Below the pieces are notes generated by a model. That model worked only from the letters and a program-made list of their open reading frames with translations. It was not told the origin of the DNA and ran no database searches. Of a DNA stretch of 64,000 bases, positions 55,895 through 64,000 are shown piece after piece; the stretch's first letter is position 1, and each line of letters begins with the position of its first letter. The position numbers were made by a program, and so were the translations under genes. Source of the DNA: Patescibacteria group bacterium (GTDB lineage: Bacteria > Patescibacteriota > JACPGU01); assembly GCA_041675145.1 (NCBI GenBank), contig JBAYUK010000001.1:312283-376282 (forward strand). The letters run 5' to 3'.

Positions 55895-56000
55895 ATTCCT
55901 CCTTATGGAGACATAGTACGCTCTCGCTACTATCCTGTCAAAGTAGATTTTACCCTTTACAAATAAAGAGCAAAGGCGTAGAGTAGAAATTCTCCCTATT

Positions 56001-56738
56001 TTGGGCTCTTACTCGTTATCTTCATATATGTATTTAGATCGTATCCAGCAAATCTACAAAGCACTCACTAAAACCACCCTCCCTGGGAGATCGGCGCAGC
56101 TCATTATGGCACCGCGCTACCCCTGGCAGGAACAGGCAGAGAATATAGATATTACTGAGCTCACTGCAGCAGGCGTCATGGTACTGCTCTATCCAAAAAA
56201 CAATGTACCCCATATCGCGTTTACTGTCCGTGCGGAGAATATCGGGACACACAGTGGCGAAGTATCTCTCCCTGGAGGCAAGACCGAATCTGAAGATCAA
56301 AAGCTTGCCGATACAGCTCTGCGAGAAACCAGCGAAGAGCTCGGGATTAACCCGCAGGATATCACTATTATCGGGGCACTGACTCCCGTGCCTACTCTAG
56401 TGAGCCACTTCTTTGTTCACCCCTTTGTTGGAGCTATGAAAACTACACCTACCTTTACACCGAATACGAATGAAGTAGCACAGGTACTAGAAATTCCGTT
56501 GGATGTACTACAAAAGACTACTGTGGAACACATGTCTGTTTCACTATCTATTAACGGGGAAGCACAAGAGATGATTGCTCCCTACTTTGAGTTTGAAGGA
56601 AACAAAATCTGGGGCATTACTGCCATGATCGTAAATGAGTTTTTGGCAACTACTCGCGCTAACCAGGAAGATGTAGAGAACTCTACAATGGAAAAGCTCC
56701 ATTCAGATGACCGTACGTACCATATGGTACAGGTATAG
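56001..56738 (+). CDS. NUDIX hydrolase (CoA-pyrophosphatase-like)
   Basis: The Nudix box reads GGKTESEDQKLADTALRETSEELG. Confidence 0.75.
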   Translation: MGSYSLSSYMYLDRIQQIYKALTKTTLPGRSAQLIMAPRYPWQEQAENIDITELTAAGVMVLLYPKNNVPHIAFTVRAENIGTHSGEVSLPGGKTESEDQKLADTALRETSEELGINPQDITIIGALTPVPTLVSHFFVHPFVGAMKTTPTFTPNTNEVAQVLEIPLDVLQKTTVEHMSVSLSINGEAQEMIAPYFEFEGNKIWGITAMIVNEFLATTRANQEDVENSTMEKLHSDDRTYHMVQV

Positions 56739-56825
56739 GAGCAACTGTTACTCGCTTTAGATCTTCTTCTATAGTAAAATATTAGCTGTATTGAGTACTT
56801 AGTAAACTAAGTACTCGTTTTTCCT

Positions 56826-56898
56826 GGGCGATTAGCTCACTTGGTAGAGCGCTTCCTTGACGTGGAAGAGGTAAGAAGTTCGAATCTTCTATCGCCCA
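56826..56898 (+). tRNA. tRNA-Val (anticodon GAC)
   Basis: Cloverleaf GGGCGAU/AUCGCCC, D GCUC/GAGC, anticodon arm CUUCC-UUGACGU-GGAAG and T-arm AGAAG-UUCGAAU-CUUCU, with discriminator A. Confidence 0.85.
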
Positions 56899-58448
56899 TT
56901 AAAGGCACCTAAATCGAATACTGGATGTTTCCGGAGTCGTGGTGCACAAAGATAGTCCAATGGTTCATTCAGGACCACACGGGCTATTTTTTTGTCCTTA
57001 ATCTCAATTCTCTTGAAAAACGTTTGTACGAGCATGTTCTTGAGCTCTGGCTGGGCCTTTTTGTATGTATAGTGACAATCTGTCGCTAATGATGTAGCGA
57101 TTTCTATGGTTCTAATAGCGGTACGAATCCTATTTTCCACCTTACCGAGCTCCTCTAGTAGCCTAGTTTCTTCAAGACCAAGCTCTACTTTGATCTTGTC
57201 ATACAGTTCAATGTCACTTGGCAACATGTGGTCTTGGCCTATAAGTTGCAGTACCAGGTTCTTTTTTTGGAGTTTAATATTGTCGATCTTCTTTGTGATG
57301 TCCTTTCGCGCATTTTCGTAGGTTGCTTGCTCGTTCGCGAATAGATCTCGCACTCTCGCTTTAATTTTGGTAGTAACCTCATCTGGCAAGTGAATCTTTT
57401 TGATGATTCCTTCGAGTTCAGTTGAAATATCGCTCTCATGGACAAATGATTGAGAGCAAGCCACCCTTTCATTCTTTTGAGCTTTCATGCAGCGCAGGTA
57501 GAGTATTACACGCTTACTGCTCGTCTTGTGCTCCTCAAGTGTCTGTCGACTTCCACATACCCCGCACCAACTCACGCCTTTTAACACAGAGAAGAGCCGG
57601 CGGTGTCTAGCACCACCGCTAGATCTTACATCAAGCAAAGCCTGGACCTTGTCGAAAACGTGCTGATTCAAGAAGAGCTCGTGTGTGCCCTCTGGATTCA
57701 CGAATCCACTCCACTCGATTATGCCAACGTAGAGTTTATTGCGGAGTATTTTTTCGACGTGACTGGCGTGTAGTTTGCCTTTCTCATTTCTGTTAGAACG
57801 AACCTTAAAACCCTCTTCCTGAAGGGTAGCTGTAAGAGACTTGATCGAATAGCTGCCGCTTGCATACAGCTCAAACGCTCTTATGACCCATTTTGCCTCT
57901 TCCCAGTTCACTTCAAGCCATGTGCGTGCTTTGTGGACCGACAGTCGTTCCTGGACATTTTTATAACCGTACGGTGCTTGCCCAGGCCATTGTCCTCCTC
58001 TTGCTTTCTGCAAGAGCCCAGCTTTTACCTTAGAACCACTTTGGCGCGAAAAAAACTCAGCTACAGTTGAAAGTACACCCTCAAGCATTTGCCCTCCGGG
58101 TGTATCGTCAATTCCTTCGGTGGCCGAACAAATCTTAATATCGTTTTGCTCAAGCTCCATTTTGGTAATAGCAAAATCCATGCGATTACGTGCAAAACGG
58201 CTGATATCGTAACAAACCACTGCCTTTACGTTTTTATCAGTGCGGCAACGCTCTAAAAGCATTTGAAACTGAGGCCTCTTGGTTGTCCGGGCACTTTCAC
58301 CCTCGTCAGCGTATACGTCTTTTTCCGGGCTCACATGGTAACCGTTTTCGTAGGCAAACTTAAAACATTCTTCTCGTTGCGTTGGGATAGAAAGCTGTTT
58401 TTCGGCTTGTCGATCAGTTGATACTCGTAGGTATATAAGGGCTGTCAT
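56889..58448 (-). CDS. large serine recombinase (resolvase-type catalytic domain + recombinase domain + zinc ribbon + coiled coil)
   Basis: MTALIYLRVSTDRQ is the catalytic Ser motif. 519 aa. Its stop overlaps the tRNA-Val 3' end. Confidence 0.85.
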   Translation of the reverse strand: MTALIYLRVSTDRQAEKQLSIPTQREECFKFAYENGYHVSPEKDVYADEGESARTTKRPQFQMLLERCRTDKNVKAVVCYDISRFARNRMDFAITKMELEQNDIKICSATEGIDDTPGGQMLEGVLSTVAEFFSRQSGSKVKAGLLQKARGGQWPGQAPYGYKNVQERLSVHKARTWLEVNWEEAKWVIRAFELYASGSYSIKSLTATLQEEGFKVRSNRNEKGKLHASHVEKILRNKLYVGIIEWSGFVNPEGTHELFLNQHVFDKVQALLDVRSSGGARHRRLFSVLKGVSWCGVCGSRQTLEEHKTSSKRVILYLRCMKAQKNERVACSQSFVHESDISTELEGIIKKIHLPDEVTTKIKARVRDLFANEQATYENARKDITKKIDNIKLQKKNLVLQLIGQDHMLPSDIELYDKIKVELGLEETRLLEELGKVENRIRTAIRTIEIATSLATDCHYTYKKAQPELKNMLVQTFFKRIEIKDKKIARVVLNEPLDYLCAPRLRKHPVFDLGAFNGR

Positions 58449-58499
58449 AAAATCTCCTATTCATTTTTTACTCATTATAATTTGGGTAGACATTCTTTG

Positions 58500-59054
58500 C
58501 TATAGCGTATAGTCCGTTTTTATTCCTTGCTCTTTTGCTCTTTGCTCTGCTACTACCATGTCAGCACGGAGACGTGCTAGAGCAACATAGTGTTCGTGCT
58601 GTTTCTCTGGTGGTAGGAACTCTATCATTGATTTAAAGTCATCGGGAGTAAACCGTACGGGCGGTTCTGTTTTGACAGGATTTTTTGAATCCCACCCCTC
58701 AAAGTACCTGAGCCACAGCTCGACATCTGATGCCTTGCCGTGCTTAATACATTGCTCCGTAAGAGCGTGGAGAATGTCAGGCTTGAACTCCATAATTCTG
58801 AACACCTGCTCTCTGTGTAGGTTGTCTCGAAAATCATCGCGTTGTTTCCATCTACTGAGGTGGCTTGGTGTCAGATTGTGTTTCTTGGCAAATGCCTCCG
58901 CAGTTGCTACCCCGGCAGTGTGTTTCTCTATTTGTGACAAGAGCGACCATGCGAAGAAGTCCGCATACACATCTTTCTTGTAAGGACCGGTCGATCGCGG
59001 TTTCTTTGCCGTACTGATTTTTTGAGAATTAACGTTTTGATCGTCTTTTTTCAT
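58500..59054 (-). CDS. phage-associated HTH-containing protein (terminase-small-subunit-like?)
   Basis: 184 aa. The central HTH-like stretch reads KKHNLTPSHLSRWKQRDDF. Confidence 0.4.
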   Translation of the reverse strand: MKKDDQNVNSQKISTAKKPRSTGPYKKDVYADFFAWSLLSQIEKHTAGVATAEAFAKKHNLTPSHLSRWKQRDDFRDNLHREQVFRIMEFKPDILHALTEQCIKHGKASDVELWLRYFEGWDSKNPVKTEPPVRFTPDDFKSMIEFLPPEKQHEHYVALARLRADMVVAEQRAKEQGIKTDYTL

Positions 59055-59101
59055 AATAAATTGGCTTAAATATAATTCTTATTGATTTACTGAAATGTTA
59101 A

Positions 59102-59344
59102 TTAGTCGGGCTTGTCATAGAGCCTTGTTTTAATGAGCCGCATTTGCACTAAAAGCTTCTGTGGCTCAAGACGTAACTTACCCTCTTTGTAGCGCTGTAT
59201 CGTGCCCTCAAGCGAATCAGAGTGCAAAAATACGAATATTGCCCGTGGTCCGCCTGAACGTTCAATTTTGATCATCTGTTGGTCCAGCGACATCAGGGCT
59301 GCTGCCAACCACATGTCGCTTGTCTGAAAGTTTTGTTTCATCAT
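59102..59344 (-). CDS. DUF5659-like small phage protein
   Basis: MMKQNFQTSDMWLAAALMSLDQQMIKIERSGGPRAIFVFLHSDSLEGTIQRYKEGKL follows the DUF5659 pattern (TSDLYLAxxL...FxF). Confidence 0.45.
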   Translation of the reverse strand: MMKQNFQTSDMWLAAALMSLDQQMIKIERSGGPRAIFVFLHSDSLEGTIQRYKEGKLRLEPQKLLVQMRLIKTRLYDKPD

Positions 59345-59532
59345 ACTTGGGTTTATTAATAGGCGATTTATTGGTAGCGGATTCGACTGCTTGGTCAAGC
59401 TGCTGCTGAGTGTCCCGAGCAACGAGCACGCAAAAACGAGCGATTTGGTCTATCGCCTGAGCTATTCCTTCCTCAAATTGTGGCTCAGTGTGCTGCTCGT
59501 TGGTTTTCATACACATAAAAATAATTTTGCCC

Positions 59533-59572
59533 GCATTTCCAATTGTGGAATTATGCGGGCAAAATCAAATGT
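59533..59572 (-). terminator. strong rho-independent terminator (12-bp perfect stem)
   Basis: TTTTGCCCGCAT, a 16-nt loop, then ATGCGGGCAAAA. The minus strand has a TTATTTTTAT tail. Confidence 0.65.
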
Positions 59573-59598
59573 GTATGAAAGTCTGGACCAAAGTCTGG

Positions 59599-60597
59599 TT
59601 ACTTTTTCTTGCGTTCACGAGGTTTTCTCTTGCGAGTACTCGTGCTATTCAAGTTACGCTTGTTCTCTTTTTGGCATTCTTTGCTGCAAGTTACCTGCTC
59701 TCTACCGCCCTTTTTAGGAGAAAAAGTGGAGTTGCATATAATACAAAGCTTACGCCCCAAGCGGACATTGTATTTTTTGTAGATATCATCCCAAGAGGGA
59801 GTTTTCTTGTTTACTCCCTGGAGTAGCCATAGGAGTATCTTGGAAGTTTCGTAAAAGTCGCTTGTAAACTTCGAAGCCCCCGACGCTCCCTCTTTTGTCT
59901 TTAAGGGAAAGTATCGGCTTAGGAGTGGTCTCCAGTAGAGTATTGGGTCAATCTTGAACCCTGATTCAGCAAACCATACGGCCATGTTTTCCAGTTCCTT
60001 GGGAGACAGGTTGTGTTTTTGTAGTATCTTACTGGCAACTGAACGTAAGTTGTCTTTTTCCCAGCGTGCCGTAAAATCGGTAACTTTTACATTCTCATCT
60101 TCAAGAAGGAAAGGATTTGCGACAGCCGTTTTACTGACGGAAGTAATCATTTCTTCGTGGGCCGTCAGGATGCTATTGATAACAGAGAAAGCTTCGTGAT
60201 ACCTAGCAATCTGGGTTAGGAGAGTGGTTTTACTATTCGTCAAAAAGCGCTCTATCACTTCCATATCCTCATCTACAATCTTGATAGTTCTGTTTTGTTG
60301 GACCAAAGCAAGAGAAAATATCTGTAAGGGCGTATAAAAGGCCATGGAGTGTGCGGAGGCCTCAGACGCTACTTCGTATCGTTTCAGCCACCCCGCAACG
60401 CCGTAGGCGATCTGAGAGCCTGCGGGTGCCACGATCTGAATGGCTGGCGTGAGCAAGCCCTGTTGTTGGTAAAAAGCAAGCTCCCGCCTGCTTGTAGTTA
60501 TGCCACGATCACTGACATGACGAATAAACATATTTACGTTCAGGAGGTCCTTTTCTCGAAAGGGAGCCGATAAATTGTATGGTTTTTCATTCTTCAT
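59599..60597 (-). CDS. hypothetical protein (332 aa) with a C-terminal CxxC...CxxC zinc ribbon and a basic tail
   Basis: CIICNSTF...CSKECQ, then the basic tail KRNLNSTSTRKRKPRERKKK. Confidence 0.45.
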   Translation of the reverse strand: MKNEKPYNLSAPFREKDLLNVNMFIRHVSDRGITTSRRELAFYQQQGLLTPAIQIVAPAGSQIAYGVAGWLKRYEVASEASAHSMAFYTPLQIFSLALVQQNRTIKIVDEDMEVIERFLTNSKTTLLTQIARYHEAFSVINSILTAHEEMITSVSKTAVANPFLLEDENVKVTDFTARWEKDNLRSVASKILQKHNLSPKELENMAVWFAESGFKIDPILYWRPLLSRYFPLKTKEGASGASKFTSDFYETSKILLWLLQGVNKKTPSWDDIYKKYNVRLGRKLCIICNSTFSPKKGGREQVTCSKECQKENKRNLNSTSTRKRKPRERKKK

Positions 60598-60639
60598 TTA
60601 TTTCTATTTTATCAAAAAACCCGCCATATCTACATGCTT

Positions 60640-60674
60640 TTGTGGCTTTGCAGATATTTTACGAAATGGTATAA
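60640..60674 (+). promoter_or_regulatory. sigma70 promoter with extended -10 (TTGCAG, 17-nt spacer, TGgTATAAT)
   Basis: Read directly from the sequence. It drives a long structured leader. Confidence 0.5.
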
Positions 60675-60689
60675 TTAAAATTACAAAAA

Positions 60690-60866
60690 GCTTGCCTAAC
60701 CCTCATCTCTTGGTGAGGTATGGTGAATAAATCCGGATATAGGGGAGAGAACTCTCCGTTTAAGGTGTTACCTATATCCGGTCTATGCTCGAAAGGGCAT
60801 AGGATAGTCGCAAGACTGTCGCATCTTAGCGGGGAGCTTTTTGCGTTTTAATACTAAATTATCACT
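60690..60866 (+). ncRNA. structured 5' leader (candidate cis-regulatory RNA) upstream of the thermonuclease gene
   Basis: Nested hairpins: CCTCA-N8-TGAGG, then CCGGATATAGG[GGAGAG-aa-CTCTCC]...CCTATATCCGG, then CTATGCTC-GAAA-GGGCATAG. No known riboswitch class recognised. Confidence 0.35.
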
Positions 60867-61847
60867 ATGCTTTTTGGCCTTTTTACACTCCTGTTTCTCG
60901 CTTCGTTCGTTCTGTTGATCGTTGGGCTTATCAACCCAAAGCCAGTCAGTAAGCTTTTTCGCAAAGAGTTCAGTCGTAAAACAATCGCTGGTTACTTCAG
61001 TGCGGCGGTGCTGGTTTTCTTTATCCTGAGCGGCGCTTCTGCTGGCCCTGTGCCAAAGAAAGCTGATCCACAGCAAGCAACTCAAGAAACAACTGAGCGG
61101 CCCGCCGCACAAGACGCCACTAGTCCTGACAACAATGAGGGCGTTGAGCCTGCTACGACCGCTGTGACAGCCAAAGAACAGCCGGACGCAAGTCAGCCTC
61201 TCTACGATGTCACTTCAGTCACTGACGGTGACACAATCAAAGTAAATATTGCCGGCAAGGTTGAATCAATTCGTCTGATTGGTCTTGATACCCCGGAGGT
61301 GGTCGATCCACGTAAACCAGTGCAATGCTTCGGCCAGGAAGCTTCAAAGCGTGCCAAGGACATCCTGACGGGCAAGAAGGTACGCCTGGAGGCTGACGCA
61401 GTGTCCGGTGAGCGAGACAAGTATAATCGCTTGCTCCGCTATGTGTGGCTTGAAGACGGCACATTGTTCAACAAACAGATGATTGCTGACGGTTACGCTT
61501 CTGAGTACACCTACCAGAGCCAGGTGTACAAGTATCAATCAGAGTTTAAAGAAGCCGAGAAACAGGCGCGCGATGGCCAGAAAGGGCTTTGGAATCCTAG
61601 TACGTGCAACGGCGACGCAACAAAGCCTGCTGTGACACCTGTGCCTGCGGTTACGCCTGCTCCTGCAGCTCAATCACCAACGCCAAAGCCTGCTCCTGCT
61701 CCAGCACCATCAGGATCAGTCGTTAAGAAGAGCAAGAGCAGTATCTGTCACGCTCCAGGCACGAAGTATTACGACCAAACGACCAACTTCACGCCATACA
61801 ATACTGTGGACGAGTGTCTGAACAGTGGCGGTAGGTTACCAAAATAG
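60867..61847 (+). CDS. membrane-anchored/secreted thermonuclease (staphylococcal nuclease, SNase fold) with a Pro/Ala-rich linker and a Cys-containing C-terminal domain
   Basis: DGDTIKV...IRLIGLDTPE...RYVWL...ADGYA are SNase motifs. About 58% GC. Confidence 0.8.
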   Translation: MLFGLFTLLFLASFVLLIVGLINPKPVSKLFRKEFSRKTIAGYFSAAVLVFFILSGASAGPVPKKADPQQATQETTERPAAQDATSPDNNEGVEPATTAVTAKEQPDASQPLYDVTSVTDGDTIKVNIAGKVESIRLIGLDTPEVVDPRKPVQCFGQEASKRAKDILTGKKVRLEADAVSGERDKYNRLLRYVWLEDGTLFNKQMIADGYASEYTYQSQVYKYQSEFKEAEKQARDGQKGLWNPSTCNGDATKPAVTPVPAVTPAPAAQSPTPKPAPAPAPSGSVVKKSKSSICHAPGTKYYDQTTNFTPYNTVDECLNSGGRLPK

Positions 61848-61872
61848 TAGATTACTAAATAATTTGAAGCAT

Positions 61873-62262
61873 ATGAAAAACAAAATGATCATCGCGGGAT
61901 TGGCAGTTGTGGCCGTGGCACTTATTGGCTTGGGCATTTACCTCAATCGCCCCGTCGCCAAGGTGGAGCGTCTTGAGCAAGCAGCCATCGACCTCAAAGA
62001 GAGCTCGGGCTACAACGCTTGTGTCGGTAAGGTGAATGAGAAAATCCAAAAACGAACTGAGTTTATAAAACTCAAGGTTCAAGAAGCCGGCTACACAGAC
62101 AGCATGAACTGTCTGGAAAATCCTAGCGAGCCGGCGTGTAAAGACACCGCCCGCTACAACGCGGAGGTCAAGGCAAGTAATGATTTTATGCCATTGGCAG
62201 ATCAAATCACCCCGTTGTCGCTAATCGATTGCATGGAATTACTCAACAAAGCCACTAAATAG
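61873..62262 (+). CDS. hypothetical membrane-anchored protein with four Cys
   Basis: MKNKMIIAGLAVVAVALIGLGIYL..., with the Cys scattered over the C-terminal half. Confidence 0.4.
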   Translation: MKNKMIIAGLAVVAVALIGLGIYLNRPVAKVERLEQAAIDLKESSGYNACVGKVNEKIQKRTEFIKLKVQEAGYTDSMNCLENPSEPACKDTARYNAEVKASNDFMPLADQITPLSLIDCMELLNKATK

Positions 62263-62267
62263 TAGGT

Positions 62268-62296
62268 TGACATACGCAACCCTATTGATACAATAG
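62268..62296 (+). promoter_or_regulatory. sigma70 promoter (TTGACA, 16-nt spacer, TACAAT) overlapped by the inverted repeat CCCTATT-gatac-AATAGGG
   Basis: Read directly from the sequence. The ATG is 6 nt after the -10, so the transcript is near-leaderless. Confidence 0.5.
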
Positions 62297-62300
62297 GGAC

Positions 62301-62855
62301 ATGTCAGATCGCCCAAAAGAGAAGCGACAATTTGAATGGCACCTCAGGGTAAACACGAGCAGTACGGGTACTGCAAACTTGTCGTTGTTTTTCCCAGAGG
62401 GGGCAACCAAAAAAGAAAAAGAAGCAGCCTTAGCTGCTGGTCTAGACGAAGCGACACAGCACATGTTGAGCCAAGGATACATATTGCCTAGTGATCGCTT
62501 TATGTCATCAGGAGATGTTGCTCTCAAGTACGGCAAAAGCAGGCAATACTGGGAGAAATTGCTTGTTGAAGGAAAAATACCTTATATGGAGACAAGCGCA
62601 GGGAAAATCACCACTGATTTATGGGTGCGGGGCTACTTGGATAATCGATCAGAAGTTGACGTGTATGTACAAAAAAGCAACCTGGCAGTAAAAAGAATCC
62701 TGGACGAATTGAAAAAACATACTACCGAGCTAAAGTTGTCGACCGATATCAGATGTCCTAACTGTGAAGAGGATGGGATGTCTTGCTATATCAACCGAGA
62801 CCATTTTGATGGTATGTGTAGCTCTTGTAAGTTTAAGTTGCGCAGAACTAAATAA
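62301..62855 (+). CDS. hypothetical protein (184 aa) with a C-terminal zinc ribbon
   Basis: The C-terminus reads CPNCEE...CSSC. Confidence 0.45.
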   Translation: MSDRPKEKRQFEWHLRVNTSSTGTANLSLFFPEGATKKEKEAALAAGLDEATQHMLSQGYILPSDRFMSSGDVALKYGKSRQYWEKLLVEGKIPYMETSAGKITTDLWVRGYLDNRSEVDVYVQKSNLAVKRILDELKKHTTELKLSTDIRCPNCEEDGMSCYINRDHFDGMCSSCKFKLRRTK

Positions 62856-62864
62856 CACCACCCA

Positions 62865-64000
62865 TGAGAATAGATAATGCAAAACTAAAAAGCGGAGAGG
62901 ACCTCCAGTTTGGAGATTTCAATGTTTTTGTTGGCGGTAATGGCGTAGGAAAAACAACTATCGTATCAGAGGTATTTGATAAGATATCTGCTGCAAATGG
63001 TAGTAAATATTTGTGGATCGACCAACTATCGCATTCAGCGAATGATGTGACTGCTGATCTTAAGCTACTCAAGAAGTCTCTTGCTCACCAAAGAGAAGGG
63101 GCAAGCCTTTTTTATCTTTCTAGTGCTACTAAAGGCATAGGTGGAAATATAGACCTGGACGGATCGCTTAGGTTCTCTGAGGGCGAAGTAGCGCAGATGG
63201 AGTCAGTAACTGATGCTAGTATTTTTAATACACCGAAATACAGAAGGCCATTTATTACTTTTTCAAGTTGTGAAAGTCGATTAACCTTTCCAGATGGGGC
63301 TGGCTTGACTGGCTTAGACCAGCCTCCTTCCGACGCTCTGAACGTTCTTTTTCGAGATGGTGGCCTCATGGAGGACATTAGCGATCACATCCATAGGCGC
63401 TTTGGTTATTATTTAGTGCTAATAGATCACACCTTCACGGCGTTAAAGGTGGGTATATCCCATACGAAACCACCAGATTTTGACAGAAATGCCCGTGATA
63501 AGCAGAGCGCATCAGACAAAGTAAGGAAGTGGGAGGAGGAACATCTTATCCCAATTACTAAAGCTGGGCATGGAATCAGAAGTATGGTCAAGCTGCTCAC
63601 GGCACTTTTGGAACCAGTAAATCAGATTATAATAATTGATGAACCTGAGCTCCATCTTTACCCCTCTCAAAAGAGATGGTTCGGTTACCAGCTTGCATTG
63701 TTGGCTTCTACCCAAAATAAACAGATATTTTTAGTAACTCACGACGCATCAATTCTTCAGGGTATATTTGAAGGCAGTGCAAATACTCATCTTTTTCGGG
63801 TCAACAAAGACAACCATGGTGTAGGCACAGTACGTTCTTGTCAGCTACCGAAGCAGTCAATTTCTCACTCAAAAAATCAACATCAATATCTACAGGGTTT
63901 ATTTTATCAGCGCTGTGTCGTCGTGGAGGGCTCATCAGATCGTCTTTTCTATGAAACGCTGTTTAACGATTACCCTAAGGTTCAAGATAAGGACCTGGGG
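62865..64000 (+). CDS. OLD-family / GajA-like ABC-type ATPase with the start of a Toprim nuclease domain (partial, runs off the window)
   Basis: Manual translation gives FGDFNVFVGGNGVGKTTI (Walker A), IIIIDEPELHLYP (Walker B), FLVTHD (H-loop), then VVVEGSSDRLFYE (Toprim start). Confidence 0.7.

Follow-up and report, generated by a model that had tools for sequence, protein, structure and literature searches.

Genes and control sequences at the locus

The window analysed here, i.e., the whole stretch of 64,000 nucleotides of a Patescibacteria contig, ends with two closely spaced genes, the first encoding a 184-aa protein (P0095) and the second, cut by the window edge, a nuclease of the OLD family (Table 1). 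Upstream of them lie a tRNA-Val gene and the gene of a large serine recombinase; the last 11 nt of the former, at its 3' end, also belong to the end of the recombinase ORF. This neighbourhood supports a mobile, defence-like setting of the OLD gene, and in this respect agrees with a sequence-only reading made earlier of the same DNA, which had regarded the two genes as a candidate anti-phage module. No right-hand end of the island could be located, since direct repeats (att-type) of the 3' end of tRNA-Val occurred at chance level only.

Table 1. Features of the locus (positions in the window)
Feature	Position	Strand	Description
tRNA-Val(GAC)	56825..56899	+	Given for context; integration probably took place here, at the island's left edge
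Large serine recombinase (the island's integrase)	56889..58448	-	Pfam Resolvase, Recombinase, Zn_ribbon_recom; PHROG integrase, 2e-92; context only
Candidate operator, inverted repeat GGTTG-acatacg-CAACC	62265..62281	+	5-nt arms; overlaps the -35 hexamer
Sigma-70-type promoter TTGACA-16-TACAAT	62267..62294	+	TG before -10; 11/12 consensus matches
Perfect palindrome CCCTATTG-ata-CAATAGGG	62280..62298	+	8+3+8; overlaps -10, ends 2 nt before the ATG
184-aa protein P0095	62301..62855	+	N-terminal beta-hairpin and helix, winged HTH, long helix, zinc ribbon
Stand-alone (Class 1-like) OLD-family ATPase-Toprim nuclease	62864..64000	+	Residues 1-379 of 552 in the window

The two genes are separated by 8 nt (10 nt in the sequence-only reading), and neither a forward-strand terminator nor a strong internal promoter is present between them; they presumably form a co-transcribed two-gene operon. 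The window was extended on the same contig, with identity over 11,137 nt. The genes that follow the OLD gene there are a convergent (minus-strand) 151-aa ORF, a radical-SAM/SPASM gene and a 195-aa ORF, and not the partner gene, such as a GajB-like helicase, which had been expected beyond position 64000. No helicase, reverse transcriptase or DUF4435 gene occurs within 10 kb of the OLD gene, and the UvrD-like gene that was looked for downstream on the extended contig is likewise absent from these 10 kb. A retron RNA is lacking, the only Rfam matches in 21.7 kb being one tRNA and one LOOT RNA; a literature search on the latter returned nothing usable.

The OLD-family nuclease

Within the window, which breaks off at codon 379 of the gene, the motifs GGNGVGKTT, IIIIDEPELHLYP, LVTHD and VVVEGSSDRLFYE can be recognised, and the fragment matches Pfam AAA_15 and AAA_21. 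The complete gene would end at 64522 (window numbering), and the identical full-length protein of 552 aa, P0001, is encoded on the same contig. In this full-length protein AAA_15 (4.8e-15) and AAA_21 (8.2e-12) are accompanied by OLD-like_TOPRIM (PF20469; 36.4 bits against a cut-off of 23.2, model positions 1-67 of 67). The proposal that an ABC-type ATPase runs here into the Toprim domain of an OLD-family protein, with the end of Toprim lying beyond 64000, is thus borne out by the contig extension: what follows completes an OLD Toprim domain and does not reveal RecF or SbcC, either of which would have spoken against an OLD nuclease.

Both halves of the protein retain their catalytic signatures. 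In 39 homologues the ATPase motifs GGNGVGKT (K30), IIIIDEPE (D259/E260) and THD (H293) are invariant, as are the Toprim residues E355, D359, D408, D410 and E503, which by their spacing correspond to E398, E402, D453, D455 and E543 of P2 Old (PMC7049728). Every motif that was mutated in P2 Old in that study has a counterpart that is invariant in these homologues.

As to the class of the enzyme (for class definitions see PMC10568477 and PMC7049728), the best PADLOC match is Old (1.8e-21), its margin over AriAB (3.8e-20) being small; the AriAB and AriA matches range from ~1e-20 to 1e-17 and those to GajA from ~1e-11 to 1e-8. In a profile search of the PDB the Class 1 OLD of Thermus scotoductus (6P74) scores best (4.9e-21), followed by GajA (6e-12), AriA (2.5e-7) and the OLD protein of retron Eco8 (2.6e-5). 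The sequence-only reading had left the choice between OLD, Gabija GajA and a PARIS-like architecture; the first of these is retained, while the other two are not, since Class 1 proteins match better than GajA or AriA and partner genes are missing. In particular, no UvrD-like GajB helicase adjoins the gene within 10 kb up- or downstream, which rejects Gabija; PARIS is rejected because the Pfam domain is OLD-like_TOPRIM and not DUF4435, and no AriB gene is nearby; a Class 3, retron-associated OLD is rejected by the lack of a reverse-transcriptase domain among the neighbours and of a retron RNA. Furthermore, an all-against-all BLAST found no neighbour family that recurs among 22 loci of the OLD clade. 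Since neither a helicase, DUF4435 or retron nor a conserved neighbour accompanies it, the nuclease is, as judged from sequence comparison, a complete stand-alone Class 1 OLD and belongs to neither Gabija nor PARIS.

Homologues of the protein are scattered over unrelated phyla. A search of viral contigs gave no match, and GenBank phages gave only one distant prophage match. The protein may have nuclease and anti-phage activities, although some Class 1 OLD-like proteins, e.g., the archaeal Cran1, do not serve defence according to PMC12796447.

The 184-aa protein

The CxxC...CxxC protein proposed for the first gene is confirmed, its four cysteines (C152/C155 and C173/C176) being invariant across 23 homologues. 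An AlphaFold2 (AF2) model based on an alignment of 71 sequences (pLDDT 88) consists of a beta-hairpin and helix, a winged HTH of the MerR/excisionase type (residues ~67-114), a long helix (116-139) and a four-Cys zinc ribbon (146-183); an earlier model from 23 sequences was weak (pLDDT 70.6), and its Foldseek comparison with the PDB was uninformative. The fold resembles that of excisionases, BldC and P2 Cox, and is also shared with the DNA-binding domains of small terminases. RQYWEK, the most conserved segment of the family, falls on the predicted recognition helix, and the long helix probably dimerises the protein.

Sequence searches with P0095 (Pfam, PADLOC, NCBIfam, PHROGs, PDB sequences, phage genomes, viral contigs) returned nothing or sub-threshold hints of HTH_17, ANT and DUF7229; Pfam HTH_17 and MerR gave no match above threshold. 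Not a single homologue was found in 2.9 million viral contigs and 50,697 phage genomes, and in BFVD the model matched structures by its HTH domain only, not by the whole architecture. The family is small (53 clusters among 1.84 billion representatives) and, in the sources that name the organism, confined to lineages of Patescibacteria; stand-alone versions of the central domain, 60-110 aa long, also exist. We propose that P0095 is an undescribed autoregulatory transcription factor, which would bind DNA.

Promoter and inverted repeats

The promoter TTGACA-16-TACAAT, noticed already in the sequence-only reading, is indeed present and is the top-scoring site within 56000..64000; the window contains five sites scoring at least 11/12, against 0.9 expected in simulated sequence. 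Its -10 hexamer ends 6 nt before the ATG of the 184-aa gene, and hence the mRNA is probably leaderless. We dropped the leaderless mRNA as a feature special to the regulator, because such geometry is common genome-wide and therefore carries no special weight. The geometry of the promoter is kept in related loci, at about -35 to -39 from the ATG, and in every locus with a homologue of the 184-aa gene the distance from the first base of the -35 hexamer to the ATG is 34-38 nt.

The inverted repeat GGTTG-acatacg-CAACC over the -35 hexamer had been missed earlier. Of 11 homologue loci, 10 have it in the general form GTTG-N7-[C/A]AAC, with its first base 35-39 nt ahead of the start codon (0.011 expected by chance); a twelfth locus, L096, carries it too, which brings the total to 11 of 12. 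The 64-kb window contains four occurrences only. The half-sites are ~10 bp apart, centre to centre, and this spacing fits binding of a dimer. The variants of the palindrome track subgroups of the regulator rather than the cargo (the grouping was judged by eye, with no computed test). The conservation of this palindrome is in part that of the -35 hexamer itself.

The palindrome to which attention had originally been drawn, CCCTATTG-ata-CAATAGGG, does exist and does overlap the promoter at its -10 hexamer; its arms, however, are 8+3+8, and it is not conserved in relatives, only the half CCCTATT recurring in one other locus (L078). Repeats of this kind are frequent in the window, with 24 overlapping matches (~18 distinct sites by hand count) against 6.2 expected in simulated sequence. 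As a conserved operator it was rejected, since related loci do not keep it; it may be a second operator at the present locus.

Homologous loci and their cargo

A tblastn search for the 184-aa gene found it in none of the 18 other non-redundant loci of the OLD clade that have at least 600 nt upstream. Its homologues occur instead in 12 distinct contexts; the cargo differs from one to the next, lies on the same strand and either overlaps the homologue or follows it within 108 nt. Absence from the OLD-clade loci together with unrelated cargo elsewhere makes the 184-aa gene look like a separate portable module and not a partner of OLD; the earlier suggestion that the zinc-ribbon gene marks a variant system thus loses its ground.

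Five of the cargo sets have strong PADLOC matches: Old at the present locus, a KAP NTPase resembling QatA/PifA, SduA (Shedu; 3e-31), a true fused AriAB with DUF4435 (2e-66, L095), and a 385-aa protein together with a GajB-like UvrD helicase (7e-65) and a PD-(D/E)xK protein (L092). The remaining seven comprise proteins that are unknown or match weakly, with no confident defence annotation; among them are a 1081-aa protein in L078, a set of 288, 300 and 86 aa in L085, a set of 361 and 245 aa in L091, and a 327-aa protein in L096. The term "defence slot" therefore rests on the five annotated sets.

The homologue loci usually adjoin integrases or tRNA genes. Serine recombinases stand beside the homologue in L001, L082, L090 and L096; in two of these the homologue and the large serine recombinase are divergently oriented, only 61 nt apart in L096 and 167 nt apart in L090, so that the palindrome falls into a control region common to both. 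In L078 and L095 the homologue follows or neighbours a tyrosine integrase. L074, L085, L087 and L089 lack an integrase within 6 kb; in the first of them the homologue is placed at the edge of a prophage with terminase and methylase.

Interpretation

We lean, with moderate confidence, towards the view that an autoregulated transcription factor heads here a variable slot for defence cargo in integrative elements of Patescibacteria, and that the OLD nuclease is a stand-alone cargo. The island would begin at tRNA-Val and the large serine recombinase, and the two-gene operon would lie inside it. A dimer of the 184-aa protein would bind GGTTG-N7-CAACC over the -35 of its own promoter and so hold expression of the regulator and of the gene behind it at a low, self-limited level, from which some signal might release them. 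The OLD protein would act like P2 Old, Thermus OLD or the OLD of Vibrio cholerae (PMC12392090), i.e., as an ATP-dependent, two-metal Toprim enzyme that nicks or degrades DNA and blocks phage replication. Promoter, candidate operator and regulator make up one conserved module, the gene behind them being swappable. The broader statement, that a member of the P0095 family always heads, as regulator, a slot for defence cargo, and that the integrative elements with this slot reside next to tRNA and rRNA genes and to integrases and contain the orphan LOOT RNA as well, is tentative, and we hold it to be less probable than the view of the present locus.

Among the other explanations, the one most deserving of attention, though unlikely, is that the 184-aa protein serves maintenance of the element, as a lysogeny or immunity repressor or as an excisionase, and that OLD and the other cargo are morons inserted alongside. 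The rexAB genes, which sit beside lambda cI, offer a parallel for such moron cargo. The excisionase/BldC/P2 Cox-like fold, the stand-alone versions of the central domain, the divergent arrangement with a serine recombinase in L096 and L090 with the palindrome in between, the tyrosine integrases next to the homologue in L078 and L095 and the prophage edge in L074 are all in line with it. Yet an excisionase normally matches one integrase type, whereas recombinases of both the serine and the tyrosine type are found nearby, and four loci are without an integrase within 6 kb; the complete absence of homologues from the viral contigs and phage genomes searched, as well as the extra N-terminal domain and the zinc ribbon, atypical of Xis proteins, also disagree with a maintenance function. 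Besides, a repressor co-transcribed with cargo would still regulate this cargo, and to that extent the maintenance function overlaps with the autoregulated head of a cargo slot that we prefer.

That the zinc-ribbon protein and OLD constitute a dedicated multi-component system, a variant of the Gabija or PARIS kind with the small protein as sensor or adaptor and possibly further partners downstream, appears highly improbable. The tight linkage of the genes, with a gap of 8 nt and a shared promoter, and the secondary PADLOC matches to AriAB/AriA and GajA would suit such a system, but the pairing was found once, none of the 18 other OLD-clade loci carries the gene, homologues of the small protein head unrelated effectors, no helicase or DUF4435 gene follows, and the best matches of the nuclease are Class 1 exemplars; the co-occurrence data largely refute this explanation. 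We give slightly less credit still to a toxin-antitoxin-like pair, in which the small protein would bind and neutralise a toxic effector in addition to regulating itself. Here the layout is indeed reminiscent of type II systems, a small DNA-binding gene preceding or overlapping a potentially toxic one with a palindrome at the promoter; against this, such a pair would require a single conserved protein, invariant in its surface motifs, to neutralise effectors as unrelated in structure as OLD, a KAP NTPase, Shedu, AriAB and helicase sets, and OLD-clade genes at other loci do without the 184-aa gene. Finally, there is next to no chance that we are dealing with a housekeeping ATPase for repair, of the ABC/SMC type like RecF or SbcC, with a merely coincidental neighbourhood. 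Its N-terminal half does give generic AAA/ABC matches only, but the full-length protein obtained by extending the contig has an OLD-like Toprim above the Pfam cut-off and finds OLD structures and defence models as its top matches, which refutes a RecF or SbcC identity; the integrase-bearing island and the scatter of homologues over unrelated phyla point the same way.

The nuclease by itself adds one more ordinary protein to Class 1 OLD, albeit from a phylum in which little is known about defence against phages. The gain lies in the upstream gene, which defines a compact promoter-operator-regulator module; this is conserved while the cargo varies between known defence effectors and unknown proteins. 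Should the regulator indeed head a defence slot, it would provide a guilt-by-association handle for immune systems of Patescibacteria and a bait for finding more of them; the few transcription factors associated with defence would be joined by a structurally new family; LOOT RNA, an orphan motif, would gain a genomic home; and the uncharacterised genes that follow the regulator (the 1081-aa protein, the 288+300+86-aa and 361+245-aa sets, the 327-aa protein, and the 385-aa protein with UvrD and PD-(D/E)xK) would represent new anti-phage systems of CPR bacteria.

Comparison with known systems

The nuclease shares with Class 1 OLD proteins (P2 Old, 6P74, Vibrio cholerae OLD) the best sequence matches, Walker A and B, the H-loop and the acidic residues of both metal sites, and like P2 old it is located on a mobile element. 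Its similarity to 6P74 is nevertheless low (phmmer E 9.7e-8, with only ~190 residues aligned), and the D-loop histidine is apparently shifted by two positions (DEPELHLYP here, EEPEMYLHP in 6P74). It also differs from Class 1 proteins in its CPR host and in the proposed dedicated regulator ahead of it in the presumed operon, which is described for no Class 1 OLD in the review PMC10568477. With Gabija (GajA/GajB, Class 2) and PARIS (AriA/AriB, Class 4) it has in common the ATPase-Toprim superfamily and secondary PADLOC and PDB matches, but neither an adjacent UvrD-like GajB nor a DUF4435 AriB, and the scores are weaker than those of Old.

In MerR operators the dyad lies within an overlong spacer of 19-20 bp between -35 and -10. 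P0095 resembles the MerR family in having a winged HTH followed by a long helix, as in the coiled-coil dimerisation helix of MerR; its promoter, however, has a 16-nt spacer and the dyad over the -35, not inside the spacer, and an additional domain at the N-terminus and the zinc ribbon at the C-terminus set the protein apart from MerR, BldC and excisionases (HTH_17) alike. The winged-helix Xis fold relates it to excisionases, but with 184 aa, three further structural elements and both recombinase types nearby it is not a small single-domain protein with one cognate integrase.

The hotspots of P2-like prophages and P4-like satellites (PMC9122126), one of which, that of P2, holds old, likewise have a fixed position in an integrative element at which unrelated anti-phage systems replace each other. 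They are defined, however, by conserved flanking core genes and not by a dedicated regulator with its operator, and the elements considered here, which are small and belong to CPR genomes, have not been classified so far. The C proteins of restriction-modification systems are activator-repressors with an Xre-type HTH and paired C-boxes. By contrast, the present locus has a MerR/excisionase-type fold, a single conserved palindrome and no methyltransferase partner. What it would share with C.PvuII and C.AhdI (PMC2175313, PMC2275141) is a small HTH gene that regulates itself, directly precedes a potentially lethal nuclease and is transcribed with it, an operator (here a candidate one) at the -35 region of a leaderless transcript, and the logic of establishment of a mobile element.

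Regulators of the BrxR/CapW type have palindromic sites at their own promoters and were proposed to keep toxic immunity genes repressed (PMC9122601, PMC9122589, PMC9122588). P0095 has no WYL or WCX domain, carrying a MerR/Xis-type winged HTH, a long helix and a zinc ribbon instead, but as with these WYL factors, one family of small, putatively DNA-binding proteins is placed directly upstream of many unrelated defence systems.

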